DNA from: Pseudogymnoascus verrucosus
Taxonomy: Eukaryota
DNA: 64,000 nt
Assembly: GCA_001662655.1 (NCBI GenBank)
Contig: KV460209.1
Strand: one strand, 5' to 3'
Part shown: positions 6,361-35,873 of the stretch, piece after piece
Numbering within the stretch: position 1 is the first letter of the stretch
Layout of the letters: each line of letters starts with the position of its first letter
Position numbers and translations under genes: made by a program
The notes under the pieces: model-generated
Databases searched by the model: none
The model's input: only the letters and a program-made list of their open reading frames with translations
Told to the model about the DNA's origin: nothing

Positions 6361-8785
6361 ATGAAGCTCTCCCTCACCCTCCTCGCCGCGGCCGCGGCCC
6401 TCACACCGTGCCTTGCGGACCAGACATGGCCCTCCTCCATTGACGAGCTTGAGGACATCATGTTCCTCACGGCAGGCTATCGCAAGCGGACCTTCACTGA
6501 CTCCGTGATTCCCTGCGAGAAGAGCCCCAACACCGCCGGCCGCATCAACGCCGCAGAATGGATCCGCACCGCCTTCCACGACATGGCCACCGCGGACACC
6601 TACAATGGCATCGGTGGCCTTGATGCCTCCCTCCAATTCGAGATTGGCCGCAGCGAGAACGTCGGGCCCGCCTTTGAGACCACTTTCATCTTCCTCCAGG
6701 CTTTCCTATCTGTGCGCTCCTCAATCTCGGATCTCCTTGCGCTGTCCATGTATACCGCTGTTCGCGCCTGTGGTGGGCCAATTGTGCCCATCCGCACAGG
6801 TAGAATTGATGCCACAGAGAGTGGAGCTACGGGAGTTCCAGTGCCAGAAAACCCGACTCAGACGTTTGTTGCTCAGTTTGCACGTATGGGCTTCAACACG
6901 AGCGAGATGATTGAGCTCACTGCCTGTGGGCATACCATTGGCGGCGTGCATGCTGCTCAGTTCCCATTGATCGTTCCCGTGGGGACAGCAAAGAATGAAT
7001 ATGCGCTTTTTGACGATGCTACGCAGGCTCAGTCCAAGTTTGACCATGGCGTTGCGAGAGATTATGTCTTGGGAAATACGACGAACCCGATGGTAGTTGG
7101 TATCGCCAAGGCCAATGGGCGCGACTCTGACGGCCGCGTTTTTGGGGTTGACAAGAACGTCACCATTAAGGCCCTGGCGAACCCCGTGGTGTTCCACGAC
7201 CGCTGCAAGGTCGTCCTACAGCAGATGATCGATGTCGTCCCACCGACGGTTAAACTCACGGAGCCAATTCAGCCGTATGAGATCAAGCCCGTCAATCCCC
7301 AGCTTACCCTTGTTGCTCCTGGCACCACTCTGTCGTTCACTGGAGAGATCCGCGTGAGAACCACTGTTCGTGCGGCGGATAAGATTTCCAGCGTAAAGCT
7401 CGTGTACAAGAACCGCGATGGCGAGGCTGGCGGATCCATCACGACTACGTCTGTAGGAGCTGCATCCGGCTTTGATGACTCGTTCACTGTAAGTATGATT
7501 CCGTGACATTTATATATATAGCTAACCAGTCGACAGTTCTACAAATTTGCCGCCTCAATTGATTCCACGAAGAGTATTTCTAGCTTCACCGTTGAGGTTG
7601 CCGTTGCTGATGGCACCACTGAGACCCACGACAACAATGGAAAGGGTTACCCGGTGGAGGACTCAGTGATCCTACAGTCACCACAGAGTTGCTTAGAGAT
7701 TTTCACTGATACTGATAATAACCGTGTACTGACCATCGTTGCTGCCGTAAGTACTTCCAATTTCCAGCCAATATGAACCATGCTTACTTCTGTAGAAACG
7801 CACCGCAGTCACAGGCACCCCAGCCGTTGACCTAGCCTCCTTAAAGGCTAGAACCGGCGGTCTCGTCGTCCCTATGCTCACACACTCCTCCCTCCCTATG
7901 ACAGCCGGCAAATCCTATGGTCCATACACCTTCTACTCCGTGACCACCAAGATCGGCTCCACCCTCTCTCTCCGCGCCACCTTTGACGTTACTCTGGGCA
8001 CAGCCAAGGACGTCTTCAAGCGCACCTCCAACCTCCCCGATGGATGCGTCCCCTTTGGATCCGACACATCGACCTCCATGGCCCCACCGACCACGACTCA
8101 GCAATCATCTACCACCGTAAGCCCTCCAACCTCAACCTCAACAACAACCCCGCCTCAATCATCAGGCTGGGCCTCCCTAGGATGCTACACGGACTCCACC
8201 TCCTCCCGGACCCTCCCTGTCATCGCTTCCCCGGCCGGCGGATCTGCAGCCCTGACGAACGCCCTCTGCCAATCCACCTGCAAGTCCCTCGGTTACGTCC
8301 TCGCTGGTACCGAATACTCCGGAGAATGCTACTGCGGGAACTACATCTCGTCCACCGGAAAGCCCGCCACCTCCGGCTGCGACATGGCCTGCCACGGCGA
8401 CGCGGCACAGAAGTGCGGCGGCTCGGATCGCCTGAGCCTCTTCGGCTTTGGCGGTGCGAAGGCAGCGGTGGCGCCAGTTCCCCAGAGTAAGAAGACCGTG
8501 GAGGGGGGGTATAAGTACCAGGGTTGCTACGTGGATTCGCGCGATGCGAGAGTGCTGAGCGGTGCGGAGCTTGCGGATGATGCGTTGACTTTGAAGAAGT
8601 GCGCTTTTTTCTGTAAGGACGCCGGGTTCAAGGTGTTTGGTGTGGAGTATGGCAGAGAGTGTTGGTGTGGAGCGGCATTGGGAGCGGCGACGAAGGTGGG
8701 CGAGGAGCAGTGCAACCAGGCTTGTGGTGGGGATGCGACCGAAGCCTGTGGGCAGGGGGATCGTCTTAGTGTTTACGTGAAGTGA
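6361..8785 (+). CDS. Secreted heme peroxidase (plant/fungal peroxidase superfamily) with two C-terminal WSC domains
   Basis: Signal peptide MKLSLTLLAAAAAL; distal WIRTAFHD and proximal ACGHTIGG motifs; introns 7489-7536 and 7747-7795; Ser/Thr/Pro linker; two WSC repeats (LGCYTD...GTEYSGECYCG...CGG; YQGCYVD...GVEYGRECWCG...ACG). Confidence 0.9.
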
Positions 8786-14882: not shown

Positions 14883-16796
14883 CTAGGCTAGGCCTTCGAC
14901 TTTGGGGTAGAACCATGCGCTGTGGGGTGTCAGTGGATAGTCGACATAAAGAAGAAAAGGGGAGACTTACGTTACTGCGATGATGACATAGAGGCAGTTA
15001 AGCATGATGCCCTCAAGCCAATGTGACTTTCCATCCCTATAACCCCATTAGTACTCGTTCCAAAATCAGGATACCACTGTAACTCACGAAATCAAATAAT
15101 TAACCAACAAAACCGTCACAAACAGCACCGCAACCTGAAACCCATCAAAACTCAAATTCATCTCATCCTTCCCCATACACCACCCCAGGAACACCGTAAA
15201 CGGCAGCACCAGCAGCGCAATCTGCATGCTACTCCCCACCGCGACCCCGATCGCAAGGTCCATCTTATCCTTAATCGCCACCGTCACAGCCGTCGCGTGT
15301 TCCGCCGCATTGCCCACGATGGGGAGGAGAATCAGGCCGACGAATTCGGTGCTGATGGCTCCGGTAGCGGTGATGGCGTCGATGGATCCGACGAGGTATT
15401 CGGCGCAGACTGCAACGACGGCTGTGGATGCAGCGAGAAGGATGACAGCGGTGTAGATGTGCAACTGCGGCTCCTCTGGCTCATCGGGAGTCTGCTCATA
15501 CGCCATCGTATTCATAAGTCCATCCTGCTCATTCCCCTCATTCAAACTATCCCCCGCCGTGCGTCCCTGCGCCGCGCCCACGGCCCCAGCGGCTGCGAGA
15601 CCACGCTGGATATTACCGGGCGTGAGATGCTTCTTGCGTGGCTTCATTGGGACTTTGCGGGACTCCTCGTTGTACATTGTAGAATGCGTTTTGAGCTGGA
15701 AGAGGAGGTACATGGCGTAGACGAAGAGGAGGATGATTGAGGTGCCGCGCGAGATGGCGGCTACCTTGTCGACGCCGGTGTTGGAGACCCAGAGGTCGAA
15801 GACGGTGGGGATGATGACTGAGGCGATGGCGAGGACGAGGAGGGAGGCGGCGGTTTGGGCGACTGTTGTGTTGAAGAATTGCTCTTCGCGACGGAGACCG
15901 CCGAAGAGGAAACACATACCCAGGACGAGGAGGAGGTTGGAGAGGATGGATCCGATGAGGGAGGTTTTGACGATGACGATTTCATCTTTTGTCAAAGCGA
16001 TGACTGAGACGATGACTTCGACCGCATTACCGAATGTGGCGTTGAGGAGTCCTCCAAGGGTCTCGCCTACGCGCAGGGCGATTTCTTCGGTGGCGTAGGA
16101 GAGGAGCGCGGCGAGGGGGATGATGGCGATGAAGTTTACGACGAAGACGGCTATGAAGTTCTGGTGCGTCGCTCCCAGGGCAATACCGACTGGCGCGGCG
16201 ATGAGGAAGATGTTGACCCATGACCCTAGGAATATCGATCTAATCTGGCTGGCAACAGTGAACTTCTTGTTTGCATGTTTTGGCGCCTTCGTCTCCTCCG
16301 AATCCGTAGTCTCAGGCCTCTTCTCCTCCTTACTGTGCTTCCCGAACCTGGAAAGGAAGCGAGAGCGCGCTTTCTCCTCCTCGCTCCGCGGCCGGGCGGT
16401 GGAACCAGTTCCGGGGACTATGGTATCCTCGCTCGTGATGCCGGCTTCTTTATCGGCTGCGGAGATGGCGGGGGCGGTCGCGGAGCCGGCGTGGCTTCCT
16501 GGGCGGTTTATGATTCCAGGCTCGATGGGGCTGTGTGGTACTGGCTCGGTGTTGGCGTGGCGTACGTGAGGCACCGCCTCTTCTTCGTCGTATGTCGTCC
16601 TCGGATCATGGCTCCTGGTGCGGCTAAATGGATTCCTTGAGTCGGACCAAGCCTCGCGCCTTGCGGCGGATTTAATCCTATCTGGAGAGTGTTAGTTCTG
16701 GCTCGCGACGGTGGTGGAATTGGGTGAATTTTTATTTGTCGCAACTGGCGCGTTTGAAGCTCGGGATAAATTCACGCTTGGGCCACACTTACTCAT
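14883..16796 (-). CDS. Vacuolar Ca2+/H+ exchanger (CaCA family, VCX1/CAX type)
   Basis: GGLLNATFGNAVE and LLPIVGNAAEH alpha repeats, MDLAIGVAVGSSMQIAL; 4-nt first exon (ATGA, intron 16792-16682); two short 3' introns give DGKSHWLEG...AWFYPKVEGLA*. Confidence 0.93.
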
Positions 16797-18966: not shown

Positions 18967-19761
18967 TCACTGAGCCACCATCCTACGCCTCACATCCTCC
19001 AACTTCTCGCTCTGCCTCCCCTCCCCATCAAAATTCCCCTCCCCCAACCACTCCTCCAACGCCCTCCCCGCCACCGGCCACCCCCCCTCCACCATCGCAA
19101 ACCACGCCGTATCGCGATTGCGCCCCCTAACCACCATATGACACTTACTCACCCCCTCATACTCAAACCCCAACCGCAGCGCCGCGCGCTTCGACGCCTC
19201 ATTCAAATCATTACACTTCCACACCACGCGCCTATACCCCAGCTTAAACGAATGGCCTAGCAGCAGCCAGTTCGCCTCCGTTGCCGCCACGGTCCTCTGC
19301 AGGGCTGGCGCGTATATCACGTTCCCGATCTCCAGGCTGCGGTGCGTGGGGTTAATCTCGATTAGGGAGACCATGCCCATTGGTACGCGCTCTGCTCCAT
19401 CGCCGGCATCAGTAGAGATGACAAAATACTGCTTTGAGTCCCTATCGTTATTGACGAGACTATTCATCGCATCCTCGAACTCAGCGAACTCGGGAAACGG
19501 GCCGCGGAGCATGTAATCCCACAACCCCGGCGGCGCGGGGGGTAAACACAGCGCTTTGTGCAGCAGCGGGTAATGGGTGGTGGACAGAGGGGTGAGGGTG
19601 CACGCTCGTCCCTCTAGAGTGGTCGGTGGTGGGAAAGGGGGTGTGGGCGTTTCAAGGAGCTGACCCATGGGTCTTGGTGTTTGAGATGCCTCCTCGGCGG
19701 TGGGATCGGTCGACATTTTTTGTTTCAATTGCGGCTTGCTTGGTGGTTCACCCTCCGTCAC
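18967..19761 (-). CDS. GNAT acetyltransferase, RimJ/RimL-like
   Basis: HRSLEIGNVIYAPALQRT...GYRRVVWKCNDLNEASKRAALRLGFEYEG...RGRNRDTAWFAM. Confidence 0.92.
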   Translation of the reverse strand: MTEGEPPSKPQLKQKMSTDPTAEEASQTPRPMGQLLETPTPPFPPPTTLEGRACTLTPLSTTHYPLLHKALCLPPAPPGLWDYMLRGPFPEFAEFEDAMNSLVNNDRDSKQYFVISTDAGDGAERVPMGMVSLIEINPTHRSLEIGNVIYAPALQRTVAATEANWLLLGHSFKLGYRRVVWKCNDLNEASKRAALRLGFEYEGVSKCHMVVRGRNRDTAWFAMVEGGWPVAGRALEEWLGEGNFDGEGRQSEKLEDVRRRMVAQ

Positions 19762-20989
19762 TTGGGGAGGGAAATGAGGAAGTTATTGACCCCATCGGAG
19801 ATGTTTGGAGTAATGACTCAACTCTTCGTATGCGCCGTATTTCTGGGGGGCAAGCTACCTGGTCAACCCCGCTGATTGGCAATTTGGGGTCCACATTTGA
19901 AGAGTCACGTGATGTTTCGGGTTATGTGCAGTAGCTCCTTGGCCACCTCTGGACTCTAATTTGGTTTCGTTTGAAGGAAGCTTAGGATTGACATGAAAGC
20001 AAATGCCGAAGCTTACAGTATTTTACAGTAGTAGGTTGAAGGAGCTGCGCGATGGATTGGATATTGACGTAAAATGTAGTCTTACAGAGAAGCTATGTAA
20101 GCAACACAGGAACACCGCGCCGAAAAGATATGAGTGCATCTGAAATTCGTTGCACAGCCTCCACAGGTTCAATGTCCGATCCCCGACATCTCCTCTGGAG
20201 CCAATCCCGGCCTGACAGCAGGACCAAGCATTACCTCAAACACGATCGACAGTGTCAGCGCTTCTGGCCCGGATGTCATGTTTGCCGTGACAGCACCTGC
20301 TAATTACAGAACAGCATGGCGCCATAACACTTGCCGTGACAGAGTACTGCCGTAGCCAGGACCATTGACTATGGTCATACTGCACCATGCTGCACCATCA
20401 GGCTGTCACTTAATGCCAAGCTGCCAATCTGACGACGGCGGCCGCCCCAACCCCCCAGTTCTACTAATTTTAGCGCCCTGATTTCCCGTTTCTCGCTGGA
20501 ATTAGCCAATCCGTGGTGCCTGGGCTAGACCCCCTATAGCCCCCGTCGGCCAAGCACTACAACTCCCGACGTCAAGTGTGCCATGATCACATCCTCAAAC
20601 CATCTGCGGACGGACGCCCACGGTGCAAAGCCTCCTAAGGGGACGGCAAGGGACATTAACTGCAGGTAGGTGAGACGAACGAGGTAAGAGCGTCGGATGT
20701 CTCCGTGTTTCTTATGTCGCCCTCTTATTGTTTCGCACGTTTCGTCTGATGTGCTGTGCGGCAAGAGAGTGCTTGGTTCCTCCCTGCGCCTCCAACAGCT
20801 CCAGAGATATATAAGAAGCCATCTCAACACCCTCAAACTCTCTCAAACTCGCTCAAACACTTCAGTCTATTCTTCTTCGTCAATAATTTGCTGTGCAAAC
20901 AAAACATTCACTACATTCTTACCTTAATAAACATTTTACCAACCACCCACCAATCAACCTTCACCCAATCAACTTCCACCACCTTCAAC

Positions 20990-21730
20990 ATGCATTTCTC
21001 CGCAGCAGCCATCCTCCCCTTCCTCTCCGTCGCTGCCGCGCAGTACGGTTCCTCCGACTACGGCTCCTCCTCCACCGACACCACCAGCAACGCCCAAGCC
21101 GCCACCGACACCACCACCACCACCGCCGACGGCGCCACCGTGCACAAAGTCCTCGTCGGCCAAACCGCCCTCACCTTCTCCCCCTGGAACCTCACCGCCG
21201 CCGTTGGCGACAAGGTTGAGTTCCACTTCTACCCCACCACCCACTCCGTCGCACAAGCCGCCTTCGACAAGCCCTGCGAGCCCAGCTCCGACACCGCCTT
21301 CTTCTCCGGCGGCGTCACTACCCAGGCTGCTACGAGCGGAAAGACCAGGCGCCAGACCGCTGCGGATATGAAGATCTTCACCATCACCGTCAACGACACA
21401 AAGCCCATCTGGTACTACTGTGGCTTCCCCAACCATTGCCAGGGCGGCATGGTCGGTGTCATCAACCAGGCTGCGACGGGCGCGAAGACCATTGAGGCGT
21501 TTGCGGCGGCTGCGAAGAAGGTGGCTAAGACTGTTGCGCCTTCCACGGTGCAGGGTGGTACTTGGGGAGCTGCGGAGGTGGCGAACGGTACCGAGACTGG
21601 TGGTGCTTCGACCCCGTCTTCGTCGACTGGTGCCGCTTCTGGCCTGATGGAGAGGGGTAGCTACGGAACTGTTGTGGCTGCTGGGCTTGTGGCAGGGCTT
21701 GCCGGGATTTTCGGTACTCTGTTGGTTTAA
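20990..21730 (+). CDS. Secreted, probably GPI-anchored cupredoxin-domain Ser/Thr-rich protein
   Basis: Signal peptide MHFSAAAILPFLSVAAAQ; type-1 Cu ligands HSV and WYYCGFPNHCQGGMVGVIN; hydrophobic C-terminal tail. Confidence 0.88.
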   Translation: MHFSAAAILPFLSVAAAQYGSSDYGSSSTDTTSNAQAATDTTTTTADGATVHKVLVGQTALTFSPWNLTAAVGDKVEFHFYPTTHSVAQAAFDKPCEPSSDTAFFSGGVTTQAATSGKTRRQTAADMKIFTITVNDTKPIWYYCGFPNHCQGGMVGVINQAATGAKTIEAFAAAAKKVAKTVAPSTVQGGTWGAAEVANGTETGGASTPSSSTGAASGLMERGSYGTVVAAGLVAGLAGIFGTLLV

Positions 21731-22192: not shown

Positions 22193-24344
22193 CTACGCAC
22201 CAACGCCTTCGATCCGCCGTCTCTCCAACAAGCACGGTGATCGCCGATCTTCTTCCGAGTACGCCCTCAACAGTTCATACCCCGACTCGGGACATATAGC
22301 CGTCCCATCCATGACCGCTACCGCGCGGCGTCCTTTCCCTAAATACGCCGGGACGTTTCTTATACCTGCAAACGGTAACTCATTCAGGCATAGCCATTCA
22401 ATGGTGAATTGCCTATTTGATCTCAGGATTAGTGACCTGAAGAAAGCGGGTGAGAACTGTCTGTTAACACTCACCCTTGGTACTCTCTCCCATCTTCTCT
22501 GGGCAACCAATCTTCGCTTGTGGTGTCCCAATCCATGGGACTCGTCATTCTAGCAACGCCGCAGAACTTTTGACTGTTTGAGTTCTATTAGTGGGTGTAT
22601 GATTATGATAACAGGACAGTGGATGAGGCACCTTCTAACTATTGAAAAGAAAATTATGACGTTGCCACCAGACCTCCTGTAACCGTTGTCGAGTCTCGTA
22701 TTCGCATCTTTCATAGCGGACCACTGCCCAAGTGCAAAGCTGGTTTCCATATCTGTTTCATTGTCTGACCGCAGGACAAAGTACTTAGTCTATAAGAGAG
22801 GGATCTGATGTTAGATTATGCGCTAGCCTTTGTGCTTGATACGAAGAAGCTAACCTTGTCAAACGAAAGATCTCGAAATGATAATGCTAGAAGACTGGGG
22901 TCGAAAGGCCGGCCTTCATAAGTGTCAATGACAGTATTATCCGTACCTAGAGTACTAGTTGAACTCTGCGTGCCCTGTGAACTGCGAGAGCCTTGTGTGC
23001 TCTGGCTGCCTCTTGTACTACGAGAACCGCTCGTACTACTACGAGAACCGCTTGTAAGCCGCAGGTTTCCAAAGGTCGACCAAGATAGTAATGGCATGGG
23101 TGAAGATGCGTCAATATCATGGCGTTGGGATGGAATGACTTCATCCTGAACAGAGAGCCTGTGTCTTGATTAGCATCAAACAGGGTGCCAGGGCAGTCAA
23201 TGGACACGCACAAATTCTCTCGTTCCAGAAGAAGCCCCACATCCGCAAACCATGAATGTGAAATAGCTGCCTCTGCTGTTGGTCGATGTATCGGATTTGG
23301 GATTAACAAGAGTTTGATGAAATCTTGACAAGGTTTTGAGATGTTCATGCCCGGTGGTTCGTCAAACCTGAGCGGTTTGATCCCTCGGGTATAATCTTCT
23401 TGATCAGAGCTATAGAGGAACGGATGGGTTAGCAGTAGTTCCATTGTGATCACCCCAATGGCCCAAATATCGACAGATATTGAATACACAGAAATACTGT
23501 GGCTACTTCTAAAGTGACCTTTCAGCTCGGGTGCCATGTATTCGGTGGTACCGAGCTGTGTTTGCAACTGCGTTCCTTCGTGACATTGCTTGCTAATGCC
23601 AAAGTCCGCAATTTTGACAAGCCAGGGGGATGTGGATACTACTAGGATGTTCTATGTTGCAATGAGTGAGTAGACTCAATATCATAAACAGATTACTTAC
23701 CCCTGGCTTCAAATCCCTATGAGCAAAGTTGATCTCGTGCATGAATTTTATCCCCTCAAGAACCTGTCGCGCAACAAGCCCGGTTGTTTTCTCAGGAAAG
23801 GGTCCCTCACGATTTCTAATACGTGCTAAATCTCCAAGTCGACAGTACTCCATCGTGATAAATACAGACTCTGTATTTTCAAACCATCCATAGCTTTGAA
23901 TAAAAAAGTGCTCATACTAAATAGTTAGCCATCCTCTTCTCAAGAAAAAGACCTACCCCGACTTACTTGAGCCTGTGAAAAGTTTGCAACGGCCTGAACT
24001 TCTTTCATATAATCTGGGGTGCTTAATTTTCTGATCTCCTTCACTGCTCGAACTTGGTTTTGGGAAGACTGGGTTGGGTCCGAGATCAGTGGTCGACGTC
24101 GCTCAAACCTCACAATTCCGAAGGAGCCTTGGCCGATGATCGAACCAGGTTCAATATCCCATATTTCTTCAATATCAATGAATAAGTTTTCCTCGGTTTC
24201 CATCGATGACTCTTCCTCAATTCGGGCGAGAGTTTCTCCAGATTTCTTCTTAGGGACGCGTCGCATGTGCTTAACGCCTCCAGCAATAAATTCTGCGTCC
24301 AACCTCAGAGCTGCGACGAGGTCTGAAGTGTCCTCCATTATCAT
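22193..24344 (-). CDS. Ser/Thr protein kinase fused to a C-terminal YTH domain (predicted 7 exons, ~604 aa)
   Basis: Exons 24344-23967, 23916-23701, 23651-23212, 23158-22855, 22789-22632, 22573-22475, 22412-22193 join in frame (1815 nt). Kinase: GQGSFG, RAVKEI, HRDLKPGN, DFG, GTTEYMAPE, DIWAIG. YTH: KYFVLRSDNETDMETSFALGQWS...LDNGYRRSGGNVIIFFSIVRSQKFCGVARMTSPMDW...W...YQGQFTIEWLCLNELPF...DGTAICPESGYELL. Confidence 0.8.
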
Positions 24345-24918
24345 ATCATGCTCAACCTTTTGTATGTTGAGATATATAACTGTGAATATGGTGCCTGTGT
24401 GTCTGTGCCTCGATGCATTGAGAGTTCCGAAAAGATGTTTTCCAAGGAAAATGAACTTGAAAAGGCCGGTGACTATTTTCCTCTTTGAAGTGCATGGACG
24501 AGGAAAGATTAACTTAGATTGACTGCTTAAAGTGCCGCATTATATCCATCGTTACTGATTGTTGGATGTCGCGAATATAAACTCTTTCGGCGGTATGGTT
24601 GATTCCAAGAAGAACAAACAAGGAGTCAGGTCCTAAACTAGACTTTTTGGGGGAAAGAATGGCATGAATTCGCTATTTGAGGCCGCCATGACAGCGTGGC
24701 AGCACAGTTCATATCTTGTGCAGTATAGTACATAGCCGAAATGTGGCTGCGTTGGCGTGGGGGCAGTGTCGACACATCGAAACACAGCCTCGCCACGGGC
24801 AGAAATGAAAGGTCGTCAGGTCTGCCTCGTCGCGCTCAATATCCTGATAAGGTGAGCAACTCCTTGCGCGGCGAAAGATATTTCAATTTTCCGATTGTTA
24901 TGACGAGTGCGGGTTACT
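24345..24918. promoter_or_regulatory. Putative bidirectional promoter between the kinase-YTH and HeLo-like/pseudokinase genes
   Basis: 574 bp between two divergent predicted start codons; TATA-like GATATATAA (~24371) and AATATAAA (~24574). Function is inferred from position only. Confidence 0.5.
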
Positions 24919-26597
24919 ATGGCCGAACTAGGACTTGCAGTCGTGGGGGCCGTGGATATTTGCATTAGGTGAGTTTGTGTGGACAGAGGATGCCGATGAG
25001 TTACTTGAGCTTGTGCTAACATGCACTTAGAGTTGCCAATGAAATAAAAACCACTTGTCGACGATTCAGAATGTATGACGAGGAAATTGAAGAGAAGGCT
25101 ATTTTGGTAGAGGCTGTCTGGGTTAGAATCGAGATACAAATGCGATTCCTCTCCAGAATTTCCGAGCTGCTCGAGGAGGAGCTCGCAAATAGCCAGTTAA
25201 ACTTGCTGCGAAAGCTTGAAGGCAAATTGCTTCAAACCGTTTCCCAACTTAGAGTGCAGAAGCGGGATGGCGATGTTAACGACTTTTCGCCAAAGCAGAA
25301 GATCATGGGCTATCTAAGCAAATGGAGGTGGGCAATCAGGGATAGCCTAAAAGAACTGGCGGCTGAGCTTGAAGCATGGCAGAACCGGTTCGATCCAACC
25401 TGGTATTTGACAATACTCAACAGCAGCAAGGTTCTAGACCTTGAGCTTCGACAAGTGAATGCAGAGTTACCAAACGATCCAGAACTCCGACTCGACTTGC
25501 TAAATAACCAGTTGAACCCACTTATGAACATGCGGAACCTTCGTTACGCGTCAAAGCCGGACTATAAAGCCAGCCTCTACTTCGATGCAACTAAGCTCAG
25601 GGACCCGAGAGAGACCCTGATCATGTTCTCATCTGCTAGAGCAATCCTGCGAGAACAAGATGGGCAAACCAGGCTCCTAATTGTGGAGGCTGTGACGTCT
25701 CCGAATGGAGGCCATGGAACACTTGACATTAGTCAGATTAAGACTGATGTGGAATCATTAGCGGGAAGGCTTCAGCAAGTCGATCCAGGCACATTTTGTC
25801 TACTCCATTGCAAAGGCCTCATGGAGCTCCGAGATGTTACGACTCGAACCCTCAACGGGATTGATATGCTGTATGGCACGCCTAGAAACTGCGCATTACC
25901 TGTTAGCCTTCGTGGACTTCTCCTTGACAGAAGCCTCGTCCCAAGTCTCAGCTCCATTGTCCGGATTGCAAAGCGACAGGTTCGCTCGGTGAGCTTCATT
26001 CACACTTGTGGCTTTGTACATAAGAACATCCGGCCCGAAAACATCTTGGTATTTCCAAGCAAAGACTCGTCGCTAGGTATAACTTTTCTTGTTGGCTTCA
26101 ACCAGTTTCGGCGTGTGAATCAACAAACCAACCTACTGGGAGATCCAGCCTGGCATCGAAATTTATACCGTCATCCTCAACGCCAAGGAATACACGTTTT
26201 GAACCGCTATGTCATGCAACATGACATCTACAGCCTTGGTGTTTGTCTCCTAGAGATTGGGCTATGGCGGTCATTTGTCCACTATCCACTACTGAATATG
26301 AACGCCGCACCAGTTCCACCAGCGTCATTCGAAATTCAGATTAGCGATGAAGACTTCACAGCCCCCCATTTGACTGCTCGATTACGCACCAAAGACCGGT
26401 TCATTGAATTGGCGAAGAGGGATCTTCCGTCAAGAGTCGGGAATGTGTATACTGAAATCGTCCTTGCGTGTCTAACGTGTCTTGATCCAGGAAGTAGAAT
26501 GTTTGGGAATAATAATCAAGAAGATGAAGATGGAATTATCGTCGGAATTAGATTTATAGAGCAGATACTAGCTAGGATCGACAGCATATCAATCTAA
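24919..26597 (+). CDS. HeLo-like (HET-s/prion-inhibition type) N-terminal domain plus degenerate kinase-like domain (~538 aa)
   Basis: Exon 1 24919-24968 (MAELGLAVVGAVDICI), intron GTGAGT...GCTAAC...TAG 24969-25030, exon 2 25031-26597. Helical N-terminus ...LEAWQNRFDPTW; kinase-like part has FVHKNIRPENILVF, FLVGFNQFR, NLYRHPQRQG and HDIYSLGVCLLEIGLW. Confidence 0.8.
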
Positions 26598-28010
26598 TGA
26601 CGAAGATTAGTTAGTGGAATCTGTAGACCCTAATTGTCCTCGGGACGCTGCTTCCTAAACGATAGGATGCAAAGAGGTTTCTTGGGTAAGGGTTTAACTT
26701 CACAGAGGAGGCAGGGGATAAGACACAAAGGGTTCAAATAACACATTGCAGCATATAACAAATAATATATTCAGTTGAACACGAAACTCCTATCTAAAAA
26801 CCAAGTTTCTACTTAAATATTGGCGTCATGCTAAACGGATATATGGATAGCAATGGATATTATAATATATCCTTATATCCTACATATCTAACGACTCCCT
26901 CGACCCTGTTGGGGCCCCAACCCACGGAGCGCCAAATCAAAACCACTCTCTGTCTCTTGTACCGGAGTCCCGAGATATGTAGATCTGTGGTATGTAGATC
27001 TCCCGTATTCGTTGATAATTGGCGTTATCTAACTGCATGCTAACTAGAACATCGACAATTTGAAAATCGCGTACCGGAGTACCGAGAAGTGCACTACGGG
27101 CAATCATTACGAGCGGTATGTCTAGCATGATGGATGATCGAACGTTTATAATAATAGTTATGCATACAGCTGCTATATACAATTGGCTAGTTCCACTGTC
27201 CCCAAAATCTGTGGTGAGAGTAGATCTCTCGTATTCAGTTGATAATCACCGTCATCAGACTGCATGCTAATCTGACTTTGCCTCAAAAGGAAGCTAGGGA
27301 TCGGGCGTTGGTAGCTTGTGTTTATATACGATTAAGATCGTCTTTGTCTCATAACAAGCTAAGCCATGATCACCTTTGGCTTTCCCTTACTCATGGTGCC
27401 TTGACACTGCGGGTGGCTTATACGGCATTGTGGACCTTGCAGAAATCCCCGCGAGACATAAGCATAAGTAGAAGAGATAGTGGAGCAGAGCATAAACGGC
27501 GTAGTTTTTATACAGAATGCCAATTCGAAATGTACTACTCACATATTATTTATGAGGCAATCTACTTACCCAGCGTTACTAAGGGCCTGAGCCTGACCTG
27601 AAGTCCTGGACCCGCCTGTGAGATTCCACCTCAGTGCTGCTTAAGATCACTAACCCGCTGACGTTCTCACTGCCTCATAAAGCCCATCGAGTGCACCATG
27701 CATTGCAAGTTGCTCCAGTTATTCTAATGATACCAAGGCTGCACTGCCGGCTGAGGTCAGATTCACAATTTAGTTGCTTGCCGTTTAGTTATTCAAACGC
27801 TTCTCAGTCCTTGGCGTCGATCGATAGCTCGGCCCCTACCTTCGATAATTGTAGCCAAAAATGTGATATAAAAGCAGGCTATTGTCCTCGCTATAATCAT
27901 CTTCACTACTCTATCGACATCTTCCACATCTACTTCCTCGATATACAATCTCCTTCGATTCTCTCACAGGACCAATATCTCTGTTACCTTAGAATATCAC
28001 AACCGCCATC

Positions 28011-28466
28011 ATGCAACTCTCAACGACCATTCTCGACTTTCTGCTTGTCGCTGCCAGCACTGTTTCTGGCGCCGCAATCGAATCTGACGCCGCAATCGAA
28101 CTCGATTCCCGTGGTCTTGGGATCAACTGCCGAGGCAGCACGCTCTGCAGTGGCGCGGGGTCTCTAAAAGACATCGCCGACAATGTCGCGAAGATCTCGC
28201 AAGATCGTTGGTACAACGCTGGCGAGCTGATTGCCTGTGTGCAAGATTTGGCAGGCTCGGGCAAGTGCGCCTTTTTGCAGGGTAACACCGGAGGATTGCC
28301 GGGAAGTGACATCCTGCCTCTGATCCATTATCTTCAGCAACACGGCTGCGGTGGATGCGGTAGTGTCCCGATCTACTTTGGTCAGGGAGATAACAACCCA
28401 GACACCCACGGCATTCTCACCGTCAACTACAAGAGGAACACCCAGGGATGCAACGGCGCCTGCTGA
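28011..28466 (+). CDS. Secreted KP4 killer-toxin-like protein
   Basis: Signal/pro-peptide, then LGINCRGSxxC, ...HGCGGCGSVP...GILTVNY, the hallmark motifs of Ustilago maydis virus KP4 and fungal KP4-like proteins; TATA-like GATATAAAA ~145 bp upstream. Confidence 0.92.
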   Translation: MQLSTTILDFLLVAASTVSGAAIESDAAIELDSRGLGINCRGSTLCSGAGSLKDIADNVAKISQDRWYNAGELIACVQDLAGSGKCAFLQGNTGGLPGSDILPLIHYLQQHGCGGCGSVPIYFGQGDNNPDTHGILTVNYKRNTQGCNGAC

Positions 28467-29661: not shown

Positions 29662-32600
29662 TCACCCACCAGCCATCTCACCTCCCTTAGGCGCATTACT
29701 TCCACTCCCCGAATCACTCGCATGTTCACTCCCCCTCCTAAAAGACGGCGTCCTCAAACTCCCAAACCCTCCCGCATCCCTAAAACTTCCCCACCCCTCC
29801 CTCAACTCCCCCCTCGCATCTCTAAAACTCCCTATAGGCCCATTATTGCCACCCATCCATGTCAATCCCGGCCCGAGTCCCAGCACAGGAATATTCGCAT
29901 CATCAACCACCAGACCTGCTGCCGTCGCCGCCGCCTCGCGCGCTCCAGCCGCTCCAGCCTTGAAGACTGGTGGAGTAGGCATTACAGCCGAAGTCGTAGC
30001 CTTCTCCCATACCTCAGCATAGAAGCGGCGTAGTCCCTCAACGTCATTACAGAAGCGTTCCATGTCATCCTTAATCGCAACATCTGGACCCTGCTTCTCC
30101 TTCCCAGCGAAAGTCGGCACCGCGGCGCTCGGCTTCGCGACTGGGCTCGGCTTCAGGCCGGGACTGGCCATGGTGGCACGCAGCATGGGGCTGCTGATGG
30201 GGGTTTGTTGGCGGGGTGGCGGCACGAAGCGGTCGTTGTCGCGGACGATATGGGTGCGGCTATTGAACATCTTATTGCTGGTCAGGAGAAAATCGCCTTC
30301 GTCGGTGATTTGGGCGAAGCCGGTACCGGAGCGGTGGATGTACTGCGAGTAGGCGTAGTTCGGCTTGCCCCAGCTGTAGATCACCTCGACGTTTGTGGGG
30401 AAGTTGGCTGCGGCCTCGGTGTCGAGGACGAAGTTGAACTTCTTCATGATCGCTTTTTGGTAGTAGTGCTTCTGTGGGCTGGATATGGGGGCGAGGCTGG
30501 TGGCGTCGAAGTCGGTAGGCGGTTGTTTTTCAGGGGGTGGGAGGGCGAGTTTGAGATGGTAGGGTGCGCGGAAGGGGTGGCTACTTGAGATTGTGCAAGC
30601 TTCTGCTATTGGAGCTTCGACGAGCCGTAGCCCATACCGGTCAGCTGTGAGAGTCCATGAAGCGATGGCGTCCTCAATGAGCTTTGCAGTGACATTCATC
30701 CAGTCAAGGCGTATATGATAGCAATTGTCAGGGTTGTGGATCCGATCATAATGCAGATTGATACGCTCAGGGCGGTACGAGCGTTTCCGTGGATCGACGT
30801 CGTATTTCATGACATTACTGAGGGATACCTTGGGTTTGCGAGCAGTTGGGGTAGGTGGTTCTGTGCCAGGGTCTGTCGACTTGTTTTCATCATTAATAGA
30901 ATTGGCCTGAGTTCTTTCTGGCTTTGGAGACTCTTTGGGGGCATTCTCGGTCATGGGAGTTGTTGGAACAGAAATATCTTTGGGATCCTTGGTGTCTCTG
31001 CGACGGGGCCCGAATGGCCACCCTGTACGTGTCTCAGGTCGAGGTTTTGCGTGTTCACCAACAACTTGGTAAAAATATTGGCCGTCACGGAAGGGGTGGC
31101 GCTTTTCAACGTGGACAAATATTCCAAAGTCCTTCTCCTTTTCTTTGGAGTCCGTGTTCGCGCGCCTTTCCTCATCGTTAACCATCAACATATTGCCGAA
31201 CTCAATGGCTTCTTCGCGGGTTTCGATATCCTCGATATTCTCCAACAGCCAAGTTGTCATATCGGATCCGATAAAGCAATTATAATGCAGTCTGAAATGC
31301 CACCTTCGATTCTGCATTCTGACTCCACCCTTTTCCACGGGAGCCTGGATAGCTTCAGCCAACATCCCGATATTCAAATTCGATTTCTTGAAACGCTCCT
31401 TTTCAGAAAGAAGCTGGCCACGCTTAATTTGTGCCTCTCCGGTCTCTAATATTGGTAGAGTCTCAAGCTCAGCGGCGATAACAACCGAAGGATCCTGTGT
31501 TTGATACCAAATATCGAGTGGGTTTGGATCTTTCACCCGTCGGCTGGACAGATTTTGAAATCTACGCTCGGATGGCGGAGTGTAACGATGTCTTTGCCAC
31601 ATCTGTGTCAAGGCTTTGATGCCCTCCAATCGAATTTCTTCTTCTGTGTCTTCGCCCTTGGGCCTATGAAGGAAGGCTGGCCGTTCCACGGGAATAAGGA
31701 CAAACCTTGCTCTCCAGTATCGTAGATTATCGGTTATATCCTCATTATGCCCCGCAATAAACGAATCTACATAATTCCAATTATATTCAGGAAGTGGTTT
31801 TTGTAGAGCAACATCGCGACAGGCGTAATCGGAATCGAAGTACGTCCGTATCGCAGGCTTATAGTTTTGAGTCTCGGCATTCTCATTCTGTAAAAACGTG
31901 GCCGATTTCCTTGTAAACATGTTTACTTCGACTTCGGTTCCGTTGACGCACGAAAGTTGGTGGATGATATTCCCCATGGACAAAAATATGCTCGTGCCAT
32001 CCTCAGCAATATGATCATCCTCGAATGCGTTTGCAATCTTCAATGCCTTCTGCCCAAAGGCTTCGGCAACGGCAGTTCCGACGACGATCTGGAACCCATG
32101 TGAAAGTCGCAATGCTACGAGCTCTCTCAGAAATTCTCCTCTTGTCTTCGGCACTTCGAGCATATCTTCGTCTATATTTTGGGATATATTATATGGCTTC
32201 TGCTGGAATTCTGTATCAAGTTGGACTTTAGTCGGGAAATATTCGGTCGTAAGCGGCACTGATGCCGGAGAACACAGGGACTTCCACTTCATCGCCTTTG
32301 TGACAACAGGACCGGGAAATATGTGTTGCCATCGTTTATATTGGCTTGCATCATTGTCAGCAGCAGTGGGGTTTGATGGGTTGAGAACATTCAGCCATGG
32401 AGAGAGCGCTACGGTCTGTGGAAGAGATGCAAAATCGGATGCTGGTCCTGCCAACAGCTTCGATTTTGAAGTTCGTATAGTGTCGTTCGATAGTAGCTTC
32501 TGTAGTGTTGGTAGGTCGTCATCATCCCTGACCTCTCCTCCTTCATACAATGATCCCAAAATCGACCTGGCCTGTGATTGGGGGTTCGCCTCAAAGCCCG

Positions 32601-35262
32601 AAAATGGGCTCTTGATGGCAATCGGCCGGCTAGTGAATTTGTCCGTATCCTCGGCATTGTCATTGCGGTCAGATTCTTTTGATCTTATACTTCCTCGAGA
32701 TGAAGCAGGCCGGTTGGTCGTCCTATCGAACCGAGAAGATGATGTCAAATGGCTAGCCATTGCGGAGGAGCTATCTTTCTGCGGAGTTGATGTTTGGGAT
32801 TGACTTGTGAGCCTGGCTGCATTAGCATGCTCAGTGTGTACTTCGGCAACAGCAGCTTTGGGGGCAGCTATCCCAAAGCCTCGGAATCCAAAACTGATCT
32901 GCCGCGAGACTTTGAACGGGCGTGCAAGGAGACTAGAGTGGGAGGTTGCTTGAGAGTTTGTGCTTGATATGCTGGTTTTGCGAGAAGTTGTACCCAGTAG
33001 CCCATTGTTATTTGTCTCTGGGATTGTTAGGGTTTGATTTTGCGCCTTTGGTATCTCGCGATGTGGTAATGGTGCAGATATCTTGCCATCGATGCTCTTC
33101 TTCTTTTCGTGGGTCTCATTTGACAGCTTCGGATATTTCTTCATGTCAAGCTTTGGTGATACTATCTTACTACGTCCTGGCTTGGAGACCACTGCGGCTT
33201 TCTCGTCAAAGGCCTCTAGTAACTCGAAAAAATCCTTCTCGGCAGTCGTAGATTTCTTGTCGACAACTGGCCTTGTTGGCCCATACAATGGATCCCCAAT
33301 TCCAGAAAATGGCTTTCTTGGTGCCTTCACAATGCTAGGTTCGTCGCCTTCGCTTCTTCCCAGTTGGCGGATGCGATCTGGCAGAGGTGGAACAGATATC
33401 TCAGTATTCTCCACATGACCGAGCATTTCTATTTCATACATCTTGCATCTGATCTGAAAATTCTTTCTCGGCTTCACAATACCTTTGCGACGATATGCTT
33501 TTGATATCTTACCACCCTGCTTAGCCAATAGTTCTTGGCTTGCTCCTGTCCAAAAGGAGACGTCTAGCCAGTGCGGAATAGCATAATTCCATTCTTCAGG
33601 GGCATTTTGAGGTGCAAGCGTGCTGAGGCGTTGTTGCAGTTCCGACGCCTTTGAAGGAGACAAGGATTCTTGCAGCGTGTTGAAGCTACCAAAGGCGGTG
33701 GTGCTTTGCCGCGGTGTACTGCTTTCACTGCCAATATCCTTCACTCGGAGTGATTCCTGGTATACATCAAACAAGGGGTTGCGATAGCGCAATAGGGGGA
33801 CTGAGTGCAGAGGAATCTTGGGGAGACAGACGAGATCAATTGCGATCCCGCTACCTATCAAAGAGTCTGTCGTAGCTTTCAGCTTCTCATAGTCCACTTC
33901 AAACAATCCCGCACAGGGCGTAATGATGACGATAGATATCCCTGTTCGGATAAGGTCGCGGTCGATGTAGTCAGAAGAGAATGAAGAAGATGCAAGATTT
34001 ATTGCTTCCAACAGGTTTCCATGGACAGCGAATGTTGGTTCTGCTTCCACTCGTGTACCAGGAACCGAGCCCATCGAGAAATCTCCAGTCGGTTGCTTCG
34101 AGCCATACTTGTTAAGTCGAAACATTGAGATATCGTGGCGAAAGAAATGAAATTCGACCTTCAGCTGATACAGGATTGTCGTCCATTCCCCACTTGCCAT
34201 TTCACTGACAACAACTCGATAGAAATCCTTGTACGGCTTCCTCGATCCAGTGGTATGATACCCCGTGTAGTATGAGTCGCCGCTCCCTTCCATGTCACTG
34301 GTAAGGCCCGTATCATACTCCACGCGGGTAAACAGGACAATGCTAACAAGGTGCTTTGCCTTGAGCGCCACCCACCTCTTGAATAGTGCCGGCAAAAATC
34401 CATTGACAACTTTTGTAAACACAATCTCTCCGGATCCTTCTGAATCAAAATCCCACATTTCTTTAGACATCTGAATAAATAGTACATATCGAGCAGATTC
34501 GCTCCGGAAGATGGGTTTTGTATTTGTTGAAAAGAACGCCGACTGGACTTTTCTCCCCGAAACATACACCGATGTTATCTGTGCCTTAATTGTGCCCATA
34601 AATACAAGCTTTTGTCCTTTATACACCGTCTTGTTGCTCAACTTCGCAAGTGTGAGTCGCCACATATCAGATCTCGACAGGTATTCGTCCTTGAAGGACA
34701 TTTCGACATGTGAAGCCGTCGTAATGGCAGCGGTTGTCGTCGTAACCAAAACATTGGATCTATGCTTGAATCCAAATACGTCGGCGACATGTTTAGCCAC
34801 TGATATTTCTAGATTGGGGTGCTTTGACGCGGTCTCCTTGTTCATCTCGCCCAATGTAAAGAGGTACTGCTTCTCGGCATCCTCCTGGGTATCCAGGCTT
34901 CCCTTGCTCGACCGCATGTCTGCGATGCTGGCATCTAATTGTTGGCTCGCCGCCAAGCTTCCGGGTTTCTTATCCAAGGCATCGTTCTTGAGCGGCACAA
35001 TGGCCATCAACTGGCCTAGCTTGTAGCGCCCGGCAGGCAAGAGAGTGTGGTTGAAGATAACCTCTTCCTTTGAAAATTTCTCATCATGGACCCACAGCAC
35101 GCATTGCCTCTCGACGGGCGCTTCATTGTGGCTAGGAGCAGTCGTCTTGGGCGGATTGACGGTCGCGCTTGGGAGGGGGTTGTTATCGTTACTGAGGCGG
35201 TGGGGCGGAATTGATGAGGGGCGAGCCGCAGCGCCCCGGCGCAATGAGGCTTGCGCACTCAT
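29662..35262 (-). CDS. IML1: Iml1/Sea1 (DEPDC5 orthologue; SEACIT/GATOR1 subunit)
   Basis: 1866-aa ORF; FRSESARYVLFIQMSKEMWDFD, YKDFYRVVV, GNLLEAINLA, MKWKSLCSPASVPLTT, DEP domain (NCFIGSDMTTWLL...FRDGQYFY), HNPDNCYHIRLDWMNVT. Confidence 0.96.
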   Translation of the reverse strand: MSAQASLRRGAAARPSSIPPHRLSNDNNPLPSATVNPPKTTAPSHNEAPVERQCVLWVHDEKFSKEEVIFNHTLLPAGRYKLGQLMAIVPLKNDALDKKPGSLAASQQLDASIADMRSSKGSLDTQEDAEKQYLFTLGEMNKETASKHPNLEISVAKHVADVFGFKHRSNVLVTTTTAAITTASHVEMSFKDEYLSRSDMWRLTLAKLSNKTVYKGQKLVFMGTIKAQITSVYVSGRKVQSAFFSTNTKPIFRSESARYVLFIQMSKEMWDFDSEGSGEIVFTKVVNGFLPALFKRWVALKAKHLVSIVLFTRVEYDTGLTSDMEGSGDSYYTGYHTTGSRKPYKDFYRVVVSEMASGEWTTILYQLKVEFHFFRHDISMFRLNKYGSKQPTGDFSMGSVPGTRVEAEPTFAVHGNLLEAINLASSSFSSDYIDRDLIRTGISIVIITPCAGLFEVDYEKLKATTDSLIGSGIAIDLVCLPKIPLHSVPLLRYRNPLFDVYQESLRVKDIGSESSTPRQSTTAFGSFNTLQESLSPSKASELQQRLSTLAPQNAPEEWNYAIPHWLDVSFWTGASQELLAKQGGKISKAYRRKGIVKPRKNFQIRCKMYEIEMLGHVENTEISVPPLPDRIRQLGRSEGDEPSIVKAPRKPFSGIGDPLYGPTRPVVDKKSTTAEKDFFELLEAFDEKAAVVSKPGRSKIVSPKLDMKKYPKLSNETHEKKKSIDGKISAPLPHREIPKAQNQTLTIPETNNNGLLGTTSRKTSISSTNSQATSHSSLLARPFKVSRQISFGFRGFGIAAPKAAVAEVHTEHANAARLTSQSQTSTPQKDSSSAMASHLTSSSRFDRTTNRPASSRGSIRSKESDRNDNAEDTDKFTSRPIAIKSPFSGFEANPQSQARSILGSLYEGGEVRDDDDLPTLQKLLSNDTIRTSKSKLLAGPASDFASLPQTVALSPWLNVLNPSNPTAADNDASQYKRWQHIFPGPVVTKAMKWKSLCSPASVPLTTEYFPTKVQLDTEFQQKPYNISQNIDEDMLEVPKTRGEFLRELVALRLSHGFQIVVGTAVAEAFGQKALKIANAFEDDHIAEDGTSIFLSMGNIIHQLSCVNGTEVEVNMFTRKSATFLQNENAETQNYKPAIRTYFDSDYACRDVALQKPLPEYNWNYVDSFIAGHNEDITDNLRYWRARFVLIPVERPAFLHRPKGEDTEEEIRLEGIKALTQMWQRHRYTPPSERRFQNLSSRRVKDPNPLDIWYQTQDPSVVIAAELETLPILETGEAQIKRGQLLSEKERFKKSNLNIGMLAEAIQAPVEKGGVRMQNRRWHFRLHYNCFIGSDMTTWLLENIEDIETREEAIEFGNMLMVNDEERRANTDSKEKEKDFGIFVHVEKRHPFRDGQYFYQVVGEHAKPRPETRTGWPFGPRRRDTKDPKDISVPTTPMTENAPKESPKPERTQANSINDENKSTDPGTEPPTPTARKPKVSLSNVMKYDVDPRKRSYRPERINLHYDRIHNPDNCYHIRLDWMNVTAKLIEDAIASWTLTADRYGLRLVEAPIAEACTISSSHPFRAPYHLKLALPPPEKQPPTDFDATSLAPISSPQKHYYQKAIMKKFNFVLDTEAAANFPTNVEVIYSWGKPNYAYSQYIHRSGTGFAQITDEGDFLLTSNKMFNSRTHIVRDNDRFVPPPRQQTPISSPMLRATMASPGLKPSPVAKPSAAVPTFAGKEKQGPDVAIKDDMERFCNDVEGLRRFYAEVWEKATTSAVMPTPPVFKAGAAGAREAAATAAGLVVDDANIPVLGLGPGLTWMGGNNGPIGSFRDARGELREGWGSFRDAGGFGSLRTPSFRRGSEHASDSGSGSNAPKGGEMAGG

Positions 35263-35873
35263 TGGTATATGGAAGCATTAATGGGCGGCCGGTATTATTT
35301 CATTGTCTAGTGATATCTGGTGAGGCGTGTCGTCGTTGCCCACAATGAGGCCGTCGCTCCCAGGTTTCTGCCGGTAGGCTAAGACATAAGGTTACAAGGG
35401 AGCTCTCACCGCCTTATCACTATGGTCACGTGATATCAACATGTTTTTCGGAAATATCAGTTGCAGTGCTACATCTGAAGTAAGTTATACATATATTAGA
35501 GTTTAATAAATCTATGGTCATAGCTAGTATAATAAATGATTAAATTAAATTTTGTATCAGTGGCTGTGTTGAATGGCTGGGAGGCTGCTAGATTTCCCTC
35601 CATGCTGCAAATTATCTCCAATTTTTCTAGTACGAAAGTAAATAAAAATTATTTACTTTATTTGTAAACCTACCCCGCGTTCAAGTTAATGATAATCATT
35701 TTAACGATCAACTTCGGATCCCATTCATAACTTTCCATCTGTTTGTAACTTCTATCGGGTTTAAATTGTGGATCTCGGTACGGCCCGAATACTATTCTCC
35801 TCATCTAGAGATTTTTGTTCTGACGCCATCAGCCAAAAGAAGCCTGACGCAGTGCACGGGCAATATTACTACA

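Follow-up and report, generated by a model that had tools for sequence, protein, structure and literature searches.

A predicted kinase-YTH protein and its head-to-head MLKL-like neighbour in Pseudogymnoascus verrucosus

What might a protein kinase do when an N6-methyladenine (m6A) reader domain is built into the same chain, and on what would it act? The question is raised by a locus of Pseudogymnoascus verrucosus, which we analyzed within 64,000 nucleotides of contig KV460209.1 (assembly GCA_001662655.1), referred to here in its full length as the window. At 22193..24344 on the minus strand, one spliced gene is predicted from its sequence to encode a single polypeptide consisting of a kinase, a linker, and a YTH domain. 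Head to head with it, at 24919..26597 on the plus strand, lies a gene for a 538-amino-acid protein comprising a helical bundle and a pseudokinase, an architecture that, as modeled, is MLKL-like. Both domains of the kinase-YTH protein were already known and the protein itself was present in public databases; what is new is a kinase-YTH fusion paired with an MLKL-like gene. The explanation that best covers the whole, although we give it somewhat less than an even chance, is methyladenine-guided kinase signaling to the paired MLKL-like protein. The neighbor lay outside the view of the original prediction, which had proposed an RNA-regulated kinase resembling PKR; its presence suggests a sensor-kinase and executioner logic that differs from that of PKR.

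Gene model and splicing

From start codon to stop codon, the kinase-YTH gene comprises seven exons on the minus strand (24344-23967, 23916-23701, 23651-23212, 23158-22855, 22789-22632, 22573-22475, and 22412-22193), which join into 1,815 nucleotides (nt) with no internal stop and one terminal stop and encode 604 amino acids. Introns 1 (23966-23917, 50 nt) and 2 (23700-23652, 49 nt) both have the donor GTAAGT and lie inside the kinase domain; intron 3 (23211-23159, 53 nt, donor GTGCGT) falls inside the linker; intron 4 (22790..22854, 65 nt, GTTAGC...CTAAC...TATAG) sits at the linker/YTH boundary; and introns 5 (22631-22574, 58 nt, donor GTGCCT) and 6 (22474-22413, 62 nt, donor GTGAGT) interrupt the YTH domain. 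All six have GT..AG ends, and five carry a branch-like CTAAC or CTAAT 9 to 24 nt ahead of the acceptor. Removal of intron 2 restores the kinase motif HRDLKPG/NILV, the slash marking the junction.

When the exons were compared with Pfam one at a time, exon 2 matched Pkinase positions 60-126 (8.5e-16), exon 3 matched Pkinase positions 128-263 (2.1e-26), and exons 5, 6, and 7 matched YTH positions 1-49 (7.2e-10), 51-77 (2.4e-5), and 84-133 (2.2e-4), respectively. The linker exon, exon 4, gave only a chance-level match, and exon 1 gave none at an E value of ≤1, though it carries the Gly-rich loop and K100. Since the single-exon matches run colinear, the joined model goes beyond what chance would give.

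A protein search with exon 3 found, at 100% identity, the 602-amino-acid KFY76901.1 (P0001; V499_03592) of Pseudogymnoascus sp. VKM F-103, which equals the model from the model's residue 3 onward; translation in that GenBank record begins at a second in-frame ATG, at 24338. The model protein also equals a P. verrucosus protein of 604 amino acids (P0026) at 604 of 604 residues. The open frame and the identical annotated protein bear out the original proposal that seven exons are joined through six GT-AG introns of 49 to 65 nt into one 1,815-nt frame. They also mean that the gene is not hidden, as had been claimed: GenBank already holds exactly the same model, labeled "hypothetical protein," with Pfam Pkinase and YTH precomputed.

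The donor of intron 5 is weak, as had been cautioned, yet it probably marks the true splice site. At this junction the relatives have FFSV-[VI]-x-S-[RQ]-K-F, and the model has FFSIVRSQKF. An alternative intron from GTTAGA at 22639 to TAATAG at 22585 would also stay in frame (FFSINSNSQKF, 606 amino acids); it is less likely because both the relatives and YTHDF1 align without gaps to FFSIVRSQKF. Further points against the alternative are that the GenBank models splice at GTGCCT and that, under the GTGCCT model, the position at which a strain differs at 22637 is the third of its codon and the change is synonymous.

If intron 4 is retained, the frame closes at the TAA at 22818-22816. Two distantly related metagenome loci taken up below, L002 (~990-1044) and L037 (~7940-8000), have a corresponding intron that likewise contains in-frame stops and has good splice signals, and the position, phase, and splice signals of intron 4 are conserved in relatives. 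Because the intron always holds in-frame stops, its retention could yield a kinase-only isoform and might in this way switch the reader module on or off. The YTH domain cannot be made as a product by itself; the YTH exons start right at the acceptor without a conserved Met, and where they have their one in-frame Met (DMETS), most relatives have Ile (DIETS).

Contigs from four runs (X5, X6, X7, and X1) align across the gene with its introns included and without joints, and so are silent on splicing. Comparison with a related strain (run X5) gave 52 differences, 40 of which were listed and underlie the counts that follow. All five differences in the YTH exons are synonymous third-position changes, and 10 of the 19 in the linker are nonsynonymous; 12 fall in 238 intron nt versus 24 in 803 exon nt. 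These substitutions indicate that purifying selection acts on the YTH exons as read in the predicted frame.

Kinase domain, YTH pocket, and spread of the architecture

The protein kinase domain occupies P0001 residues 65-331 (23247..24146, minus strand; Pkinase, 5.2e-52). Over the whole protein, PF00069 scores 177.3 bits against a gathering score of 31.7 and covers profile positions 4-263 of 263. The catalytic set is complete (GQGSFG loop, K100, E113, H190-R191-D192, N197, D212-F213-G214, and A236-P237-E238), each motif being kept in at least 90% of 17 relatives in the family alignment, and by these motifs the kinase looks active. Its closest solved chains are Rad53 (1.6e-31), STK17A, STK17B, CDPKs, CaMKI, DAPK1-3, and MYLK4, all kinases of the CAMK group. 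Because of these matches, the kinase is assigned to the CAMK group and not to the eIF2-alpha kinases, none of which appeared among the 60 best solved-chain matches. Pfam gave no match to the double-stranded RNA (dsRNA)-binding motif (dsrm) at an E value of ≤0.001 in the whole protein.

An AlphaFold model built from a 17-row alignment (mean predicted local distance difference test [pLDDT] score, 67.7) has folded kinase and YTH domains. The Ser-rich linker between them (about residues 332-444; 22855..23246, minus strand) is predicted to be disordered, with pLDDT values of <50 over residues 335-428, and holds short motifs conserved in the family: SLFVxDE, PSLAWS, and, just ahead of the YTH domain, TYxGxxLDxxLL. 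Ahead of the kinase, P0001 residues 6-29 (~24323-24252, minus strand) form a further conserved segment with the consensus LVxxxKLxTEFLxGCVKH, modeled as a helix plus strands (pLDDT, 63 to 84), which could be a docking or regulatory element.

The YTH domain (P0001 residues 445-580; 22262..22789, minus strand; exons 5 to 7) matches PF04146 at 3.5e-29. Scored over the whole protein, the match reaches 101.7 bits against a gathering score of 22.1 and spans profile positions 1-133 of 135, so that the C-terminal domain had rightly been called a true YTH domain. Residues 446-587 are modeled as alternating strands and helices (pLDDT, 74 to 89). Among solved chains, YTHDF1 ranks first (2.1e-14), followed by YTHDF2, MRB1 (2.6e-13), CPSF30, YTHDF3, YTHDC1, and YTHDC2, with Mmi1 chains near the bottom of the YTH matches (E values of about 7e-6 to 2e-5).

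Passages of PMC6112328 assign the YTHDF1 m6A pocket to W411, W465, W470, and D401, state that the third residue of the YTH cage can be Trp, Tyr, or Leu, and give the Pho92 cage as W177, W231, and Y237, with Tyr in third place. By alignment, D457 of the kinase-YTH protein corresponds to YTHDF1 D401, W467 to W411, W519 to W465, and Y528 to W470; the putative cage residues picked out from the window (W in GQWS, W in EDWLP, and Y in EYQG) are thus kept. All 17 sequences keep W467 and W519, and at least 90% keep D457. At the third position, members of the Xylaria/Emericellopsis group have Trp, and those of the Pseudogymnoascus/Lophium group have Tyr, preceded by a four-residue insert; no such residue is evident in the Cadophora protein P0013. 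These alignments indicate that the methyl-adenine pocket is intact. Like YTHDF1-3 and Pho92 (MRB1), the protein has a full YTH domain with a D/W/W/(W or Y) pocket, its third residue being Tyr as in Pho92. It differs from them in its effector, which is a protein kinase where theirs is a low-complexity region, and in the insert before the third cage residue; binding here is predicted.

Pkinase and YTH were both precomputed for 13 of 19 matches to the exon 3 protein search and for all five matches to a search with the YTH part alone, and all 17 aligned relatives carry both domains, including a Venturia protein that has lost part of its YTH domain in annotation. The architecture occurs in Lophium mytilinum, Dactylonectria macrodidyma, two Emericellopsis species, several Xylaria and Nemania, Amylocarpus encephaloides, Cadophora, and Madurella mycetomatis, and it recurs in three classes (Leotiomycetes, Dothideomycetes, and Sordariomycetes). 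We also searched 1.84 billion representatives exhaustively with HMMER; the best 150 matches were listed and 24 of them were scanned with Pfam, and five of the 24 carry YTH (P0031, P0032, P0033, P0034, and P0044). Together with P0007 and P0005, this makes about seven kinase-YTH clusters at 50% identity among the best 150 matches, beneath which the scores fall to kinase-only proteins. As these sequence searches describe it, the kinase-YTH family is real, small, and patchy.

One close kinase relative, P0015 of Aspergillus bertholletiae (43% identity over the C-lobe), has ankyrin repeats in place of YTH, and many others, 500 to 1,200 amino acids long, have unannotated C-terminal parts; the kinase family may be one whose sensor domains can be exchanged.

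The statement that characterized fungal YTH proteins are not kinase fusions agrees with the literature searched, in which none is described as such; the word "kinase" does not occur in the available passages of the fungal YTH phylogeny paper PMC10826363. A literature search of main texts, without their supplements, returned nothing on the kinase-YTH architecture or on its pairing with a HeLo-like pseudokinase.

The conserved head-to-head pair

The neighboring gene has two exons (24919-24968 and 25031-26597) separated by one intron (24969-25030; GTGAGT..CTAAC..TTAG), all on the plus strand, and its product is identical to P0180 at 496 of 538 residues. In an alignment of 22 family members, HKN stands in place of HRD, and GFN/GFxQF stands in place of DFG; H347 and K348 are invariant, and N349 is kept in at least 90%. 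Because of HKN for HRD and GFxQF for DFG, we class the protein as a pseudokinase. A near-invariant Thr, T383, lies in the stretch standing for the activation loop and is a candidate phosphorylation site.

An AlphaFold2 model of the neighbor (predicted template-modeling [pTM] score, 0.75) has long helices at residues 2-29, 34-63, 66-91, and 104-147, two shorter, brace-like helices at residues 150-165 and 180-191, and then a kinase fold. Compared with solved folds (Foldseek, VIA-align), residues 196-538 resemble tyrosine kinase-like (TKL) and tyrosine kinase (TK) proteins (Z, 17.5 to 20), with the bundle outside the aligned part; the match to the rat MLKL pseudokinase has a Z of 18.0, 19% identity, and a root mean square deviation of 4.0 over 251 aligned positions. 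In a language-model atlas, the whole protein falls among ascomycete clusters labeled HeLo, DUF7580, and kinase, and the closest named clusters to residues 1-195 are HeLo (0.94/0.92, with 177/154 shared features).

Start codon to start codon, the two genes are separated by 574 bp (24345..24918), which we infer to be a bidirectional promoter common to both. To follow the pair beyond the window, metagenome contigs were scanned with the YTH alignment, which gave 46 loci, and tblastn was run for the kinase-YTH gene and the neighbor. Six loci carry a kinase-YTH gene (L002, L003, L008, L037, L044, and L045). Upstream sequence was sufficient in three of the six (L003, L037, and L045); L008, L001, and L002 were too short upstream. 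A neighbor homologue stands head to head with the kinase-YTH gene in both L037 (50% identity, E value of 5e-163) and L003 (39 to 46% identity), with a start-to-start spacing of about 500 to 525 bp. Among 84 window open reading frames (ORFs) of at least 90 amino acids at 8 to 42 kb, none except the pair's own matches L003 or L037. The pair is kept while its flanks change.

A separate observation comes from L044, a close relative of L045. An ORF at 2938-3348 (plus strand) resembles the neighbor's bundle (28% identity, E value of 3e-13); it sits on the downstream side of the kinase-YTH gene and points the same way, and the contig ends before a pseudokinase would be visible.

In 10 named species, a kinase-YTH protein and a close relative of the neighbor are encoded on equally long contigs. 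GenBank accessions are consecutive in four of the five pairs looked up (Lophium, Xylaria acuta, Amylocarpus, and Emericellopsis atlantica), and the Emericellopsis cladophorae locus tags, J7T54_001523 and J7T54_001524, are likewise consecutive. Maximum-likelihood trees were built for each gene from 11 pairs, and their topologies are the same. Both group Pseudogymnoascus (Leotiomycetes) with Lophium (Dothideomycetes) with support of 100/100, and both group Amylocarpus (Leotiomycetes) with Emericellopsis (Sordariomycetes, Hypocreales) with support of 100/99 and 93/92. Since the trees match even in their departures from class-level taxonomy, the two genes have traveled together. The shared departures suggest that old paralogous modules were lost differentially or else that a two-gene unit was transferred horizontally.

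Possible function of the pair

How might these parts work together? The first step would be binding of the YTH domain to nucleic acid bearing N6-methyladenine, which we hold to be reasonably probable, with m6A RNA as the most likely ligand. Binding would place or cluster the kinase on the nucleic acid, and the kinase would then act on the product of the paired gene; that the two are functionally coupled is, in our estimate, also rather more probable than otherwise. By analogy with RIPK3 and MLKL, the likeliest act of the kinase would be phosphorylation of the neighbor's pseudokinase, releasing the N-terminal bundle as RIPK3 does to MLKL, although we regard this particular step as doubtful. Sensor and activating kinase would reside in one protein, with the executioner supplied by the adjacent gene. 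An extension of the scheme that we consider unlikely is a fungal necroptosis-like pathway in which sensor and licensing kinase are fused, the YTH domain detects infection-derived or non-self methyladenine nucleic acid, and the pseudokinase's bundle attacks membranes; candidate triggers would be mycovirus RNA or N6-methyladenine (6mA)-rich bacterial or plasmid DNA, and the two-gene module would move or be kept as a unit among Pezizomycotina. A predicted complex of kinase residues 1-345 with the whole neighbor scored 0.00 in both runs, which were made without alignments, and weighs neither for nor against an interaction.

The mechanism of animal RIPK3-MLKL necroptosis is described in passages of the review PMC12881547. 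Here, as in that system with its sensor ZBP1, a kinase that looks active has a partner in which a helical bundle and brace-like helices are followed by a pseudokinase without the catalytic Asp or DFG, and a nucleic-acid-binding module stands upstream. Unlike in animals, one chain carries both sensor and kinase, the kinase does not resemble the TKL/RIPK type, and no RIP homotypic interaction motif (RHIM) or amyloid motif was seen. The fungal HeLo/HELL executioners HET-S and HELLP share with the pair a two-gene cluster logic and the HeLo-like N terminus predicted for the neighbor; their partner is a NOD-like receptor (NLR), whereas here it is a kinase-YTH protein, and their activation is by amyloid templating, whereas phosphorylation is proposed here. 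According to passages of the same review, from 2025, some fungal HELL domains share a protein with a kinase or pseudokinase; the passages name no activator of fungal MLKL-architecture proteins, and "YTH" occurs nowhere in the review's text.

If true, the necroptosis-like pathway would be the first link of an m6A-reader domain to regulated cell death and would provide the first proposed upstream activator for a fungal MLKL-like protein. Known YTH domains serve as passive readers, recruiting other factors; in the present protein such a domain is joined directly to a predicted active kinase, and a methylated-adenine mark could become a phosphorylation signal. The conserved divergent pair offers a concrete, testable candidate for the activator of fungal MLKL-architecture proteins and would be a simple two-gene system for how necroptosis-like signaling is built outside animals.

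Several observations weigh against this scheme. On the side of the neighbor, the Pfam HeLo model matched none of 22 family members, DUF7580 matched four of the 22 weakly (E values of ≥0.007), and Pkinase scored 24.7 bits, below its cut-off of 31.7; homology of the N-terminal bundle to HeLo/four-helix bundle (4HB) domains, drawn solely from the language-model neighbors, is a lead. The kinase, by its sequence matches, is CAMK-like rather than RIPK-like. The neighbor family numbers 2,014 relatives in a protein search, including proteins of Podospora, Colletotrichum, and Orbilia; it is far larger than the kinase-YTH family, and most of its members must therefore work without a kinase-YTH protein. 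As for the pairing, 6.5 kb upstream of the kinase-YTH gene in L045 contain no neighbor homologue at an E value of <1e-5, the Madurella pair has accessions seven apart, and five kinase-YTH proteins (Dactylonectria, Cadophora, Venturia, X. longipes CHU98, and X. arbuscula NPX13) had no same-contig neighbor among the 120 rows listed. Identical tree topology, finally, can arise from coinheritance without functional coupling.

The rival that survives best, which we judge possible but not probable, is a stand-alone reader-kinase. The YTH domain would tether the kinase to m6A mRNAs, the substrates would be messenger ribonucleoprotein (mRNP), decay, translation, or transcription factors, and the neighbor would be merely coinherited or coregulated and not a target. 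The closeness of the YTH domain to the cytoplasmic YTHDF/Pho92 type is consistent with this reading, as are the L045 locus and the many neighbor-family members that occur without a kinase-YTH protein, and passages of PMC5832417 offer YTHDC2 as a precedent for an enzyme fused to YTH. YTHDC2 and plant CPSF30-L resemble the present protein in attaching YTH to an enzyme or processing factor; their fused modules are a helicase or CCCH fingers, and passages of PMC5832417 and PMC7641849 mention no kinase fusion. A bystander role for the neighbor is harder to reconcile with a pair that remains adjacent in three fungal classes though its flanks differ and with two gene trees that agree even where they depart from class-level taxonomy, and a small, patchy family is unlike a core mRNA-metabolism factor.

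An unlikely alternative concerns the ligand: instead of m6A RNA, the YTH domain might recognize an RNA motif without methylation, in the manner of Mmi1, or N6-methyladenine in DNA, like the YTH-like domain of archaeal McrB. According to passages of PMC6112328, Mmi1 has the YTH fold without m6A-specific binding, but the N1-contacting D457 is kept here (YTHDF1 D401) where Mmi1 has Ala, and Mmi1 is among the weakest YTH matches (7e-6 to 2e-5, versus 2e-14 for YTHDF1). The variable third cage residue (W, Y, or none evident) and the four-residue insert before it would fit a changed ligand; the invariance of W467 and W519 in 17 sequences would not. YTH-like domains fused to McrB bind m6A DNA, as passages of PMC7641849 report, and there too a YTH-type reader is the sensor module of a conflict system, although that system is prokaryotic and the reader is fused to a GTPase/nuclease system.

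The PKR-like reading of the original prediction, worked out here as YTH-RNA binding that would lead to dimerization, autophosphorylation, and translation shut-down, appears highly unlikely. The overall logic is the same as in PKR (EIF2AK2), where a single chain likewise links a module for RNA binding to a Ser/Thr kinase through a flexible linker, and a long linker would permit clustering on RNA. The parts differ: PKR combines an eIF2-alpha kinase with N-terminal dsRNA-binding motifs, whereas a CAMK-group kinase is combined here with a C-terminal YTH domain, and the searches described above recovered neither an eIF2-alpha kinase among the 60 best solved chains nor a dsRNA-binding motif in Pfam. 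Scarcely credible, finally, is the notion that kinase and YTH are separate products or that the YTH exons are a relic, with transcripts keeping intron 4 and stopping at the TAA at 22818-22816: the in-frame stops of intron 4 and of its L002 and L037 counterparts would allow it, but the YTH exons lack a conserved start codon, show only synonymous differences (five of five) indicative of purifying selection, and conserve their pocket residues in 17 of 17 relatives, and the position, phase, and splice signals of intron 4 are themselves conserved.

Around the pair, the window holds genes of other kinds. On the downstream side, the kinase-YTH gene is followed by genes for a cupredoxin-like protein that is rich in Ser/Thr and has weak plastocyanin-like matches (20750-21730, plus strand), a GNAT acetyltransferase (18967-19782, minus strand), and a Na/Ca-exchanger family protein (15084-16691, minus strand), none of which is conserved next to the pair in L003 or L037. 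On the other side, an ORF at 27993-28466 (plus strand), about 1.4 kb past the MLKL-like gene, strongly matches the Kp4 killer-toxin family (PF09044, 4.3e-33); it is probably outside the module, because it has no counterpart in L003 or L037. At 29662-35277 (minus strand) lies an Iml1/DEPDC5 homologue with an IML1 N-terminal domain (1.2e-114), DEP, and DEPDC5_CTD, an ordinary housekeeping gene whose product belongs to the SEACIT/GATOR1 complex.

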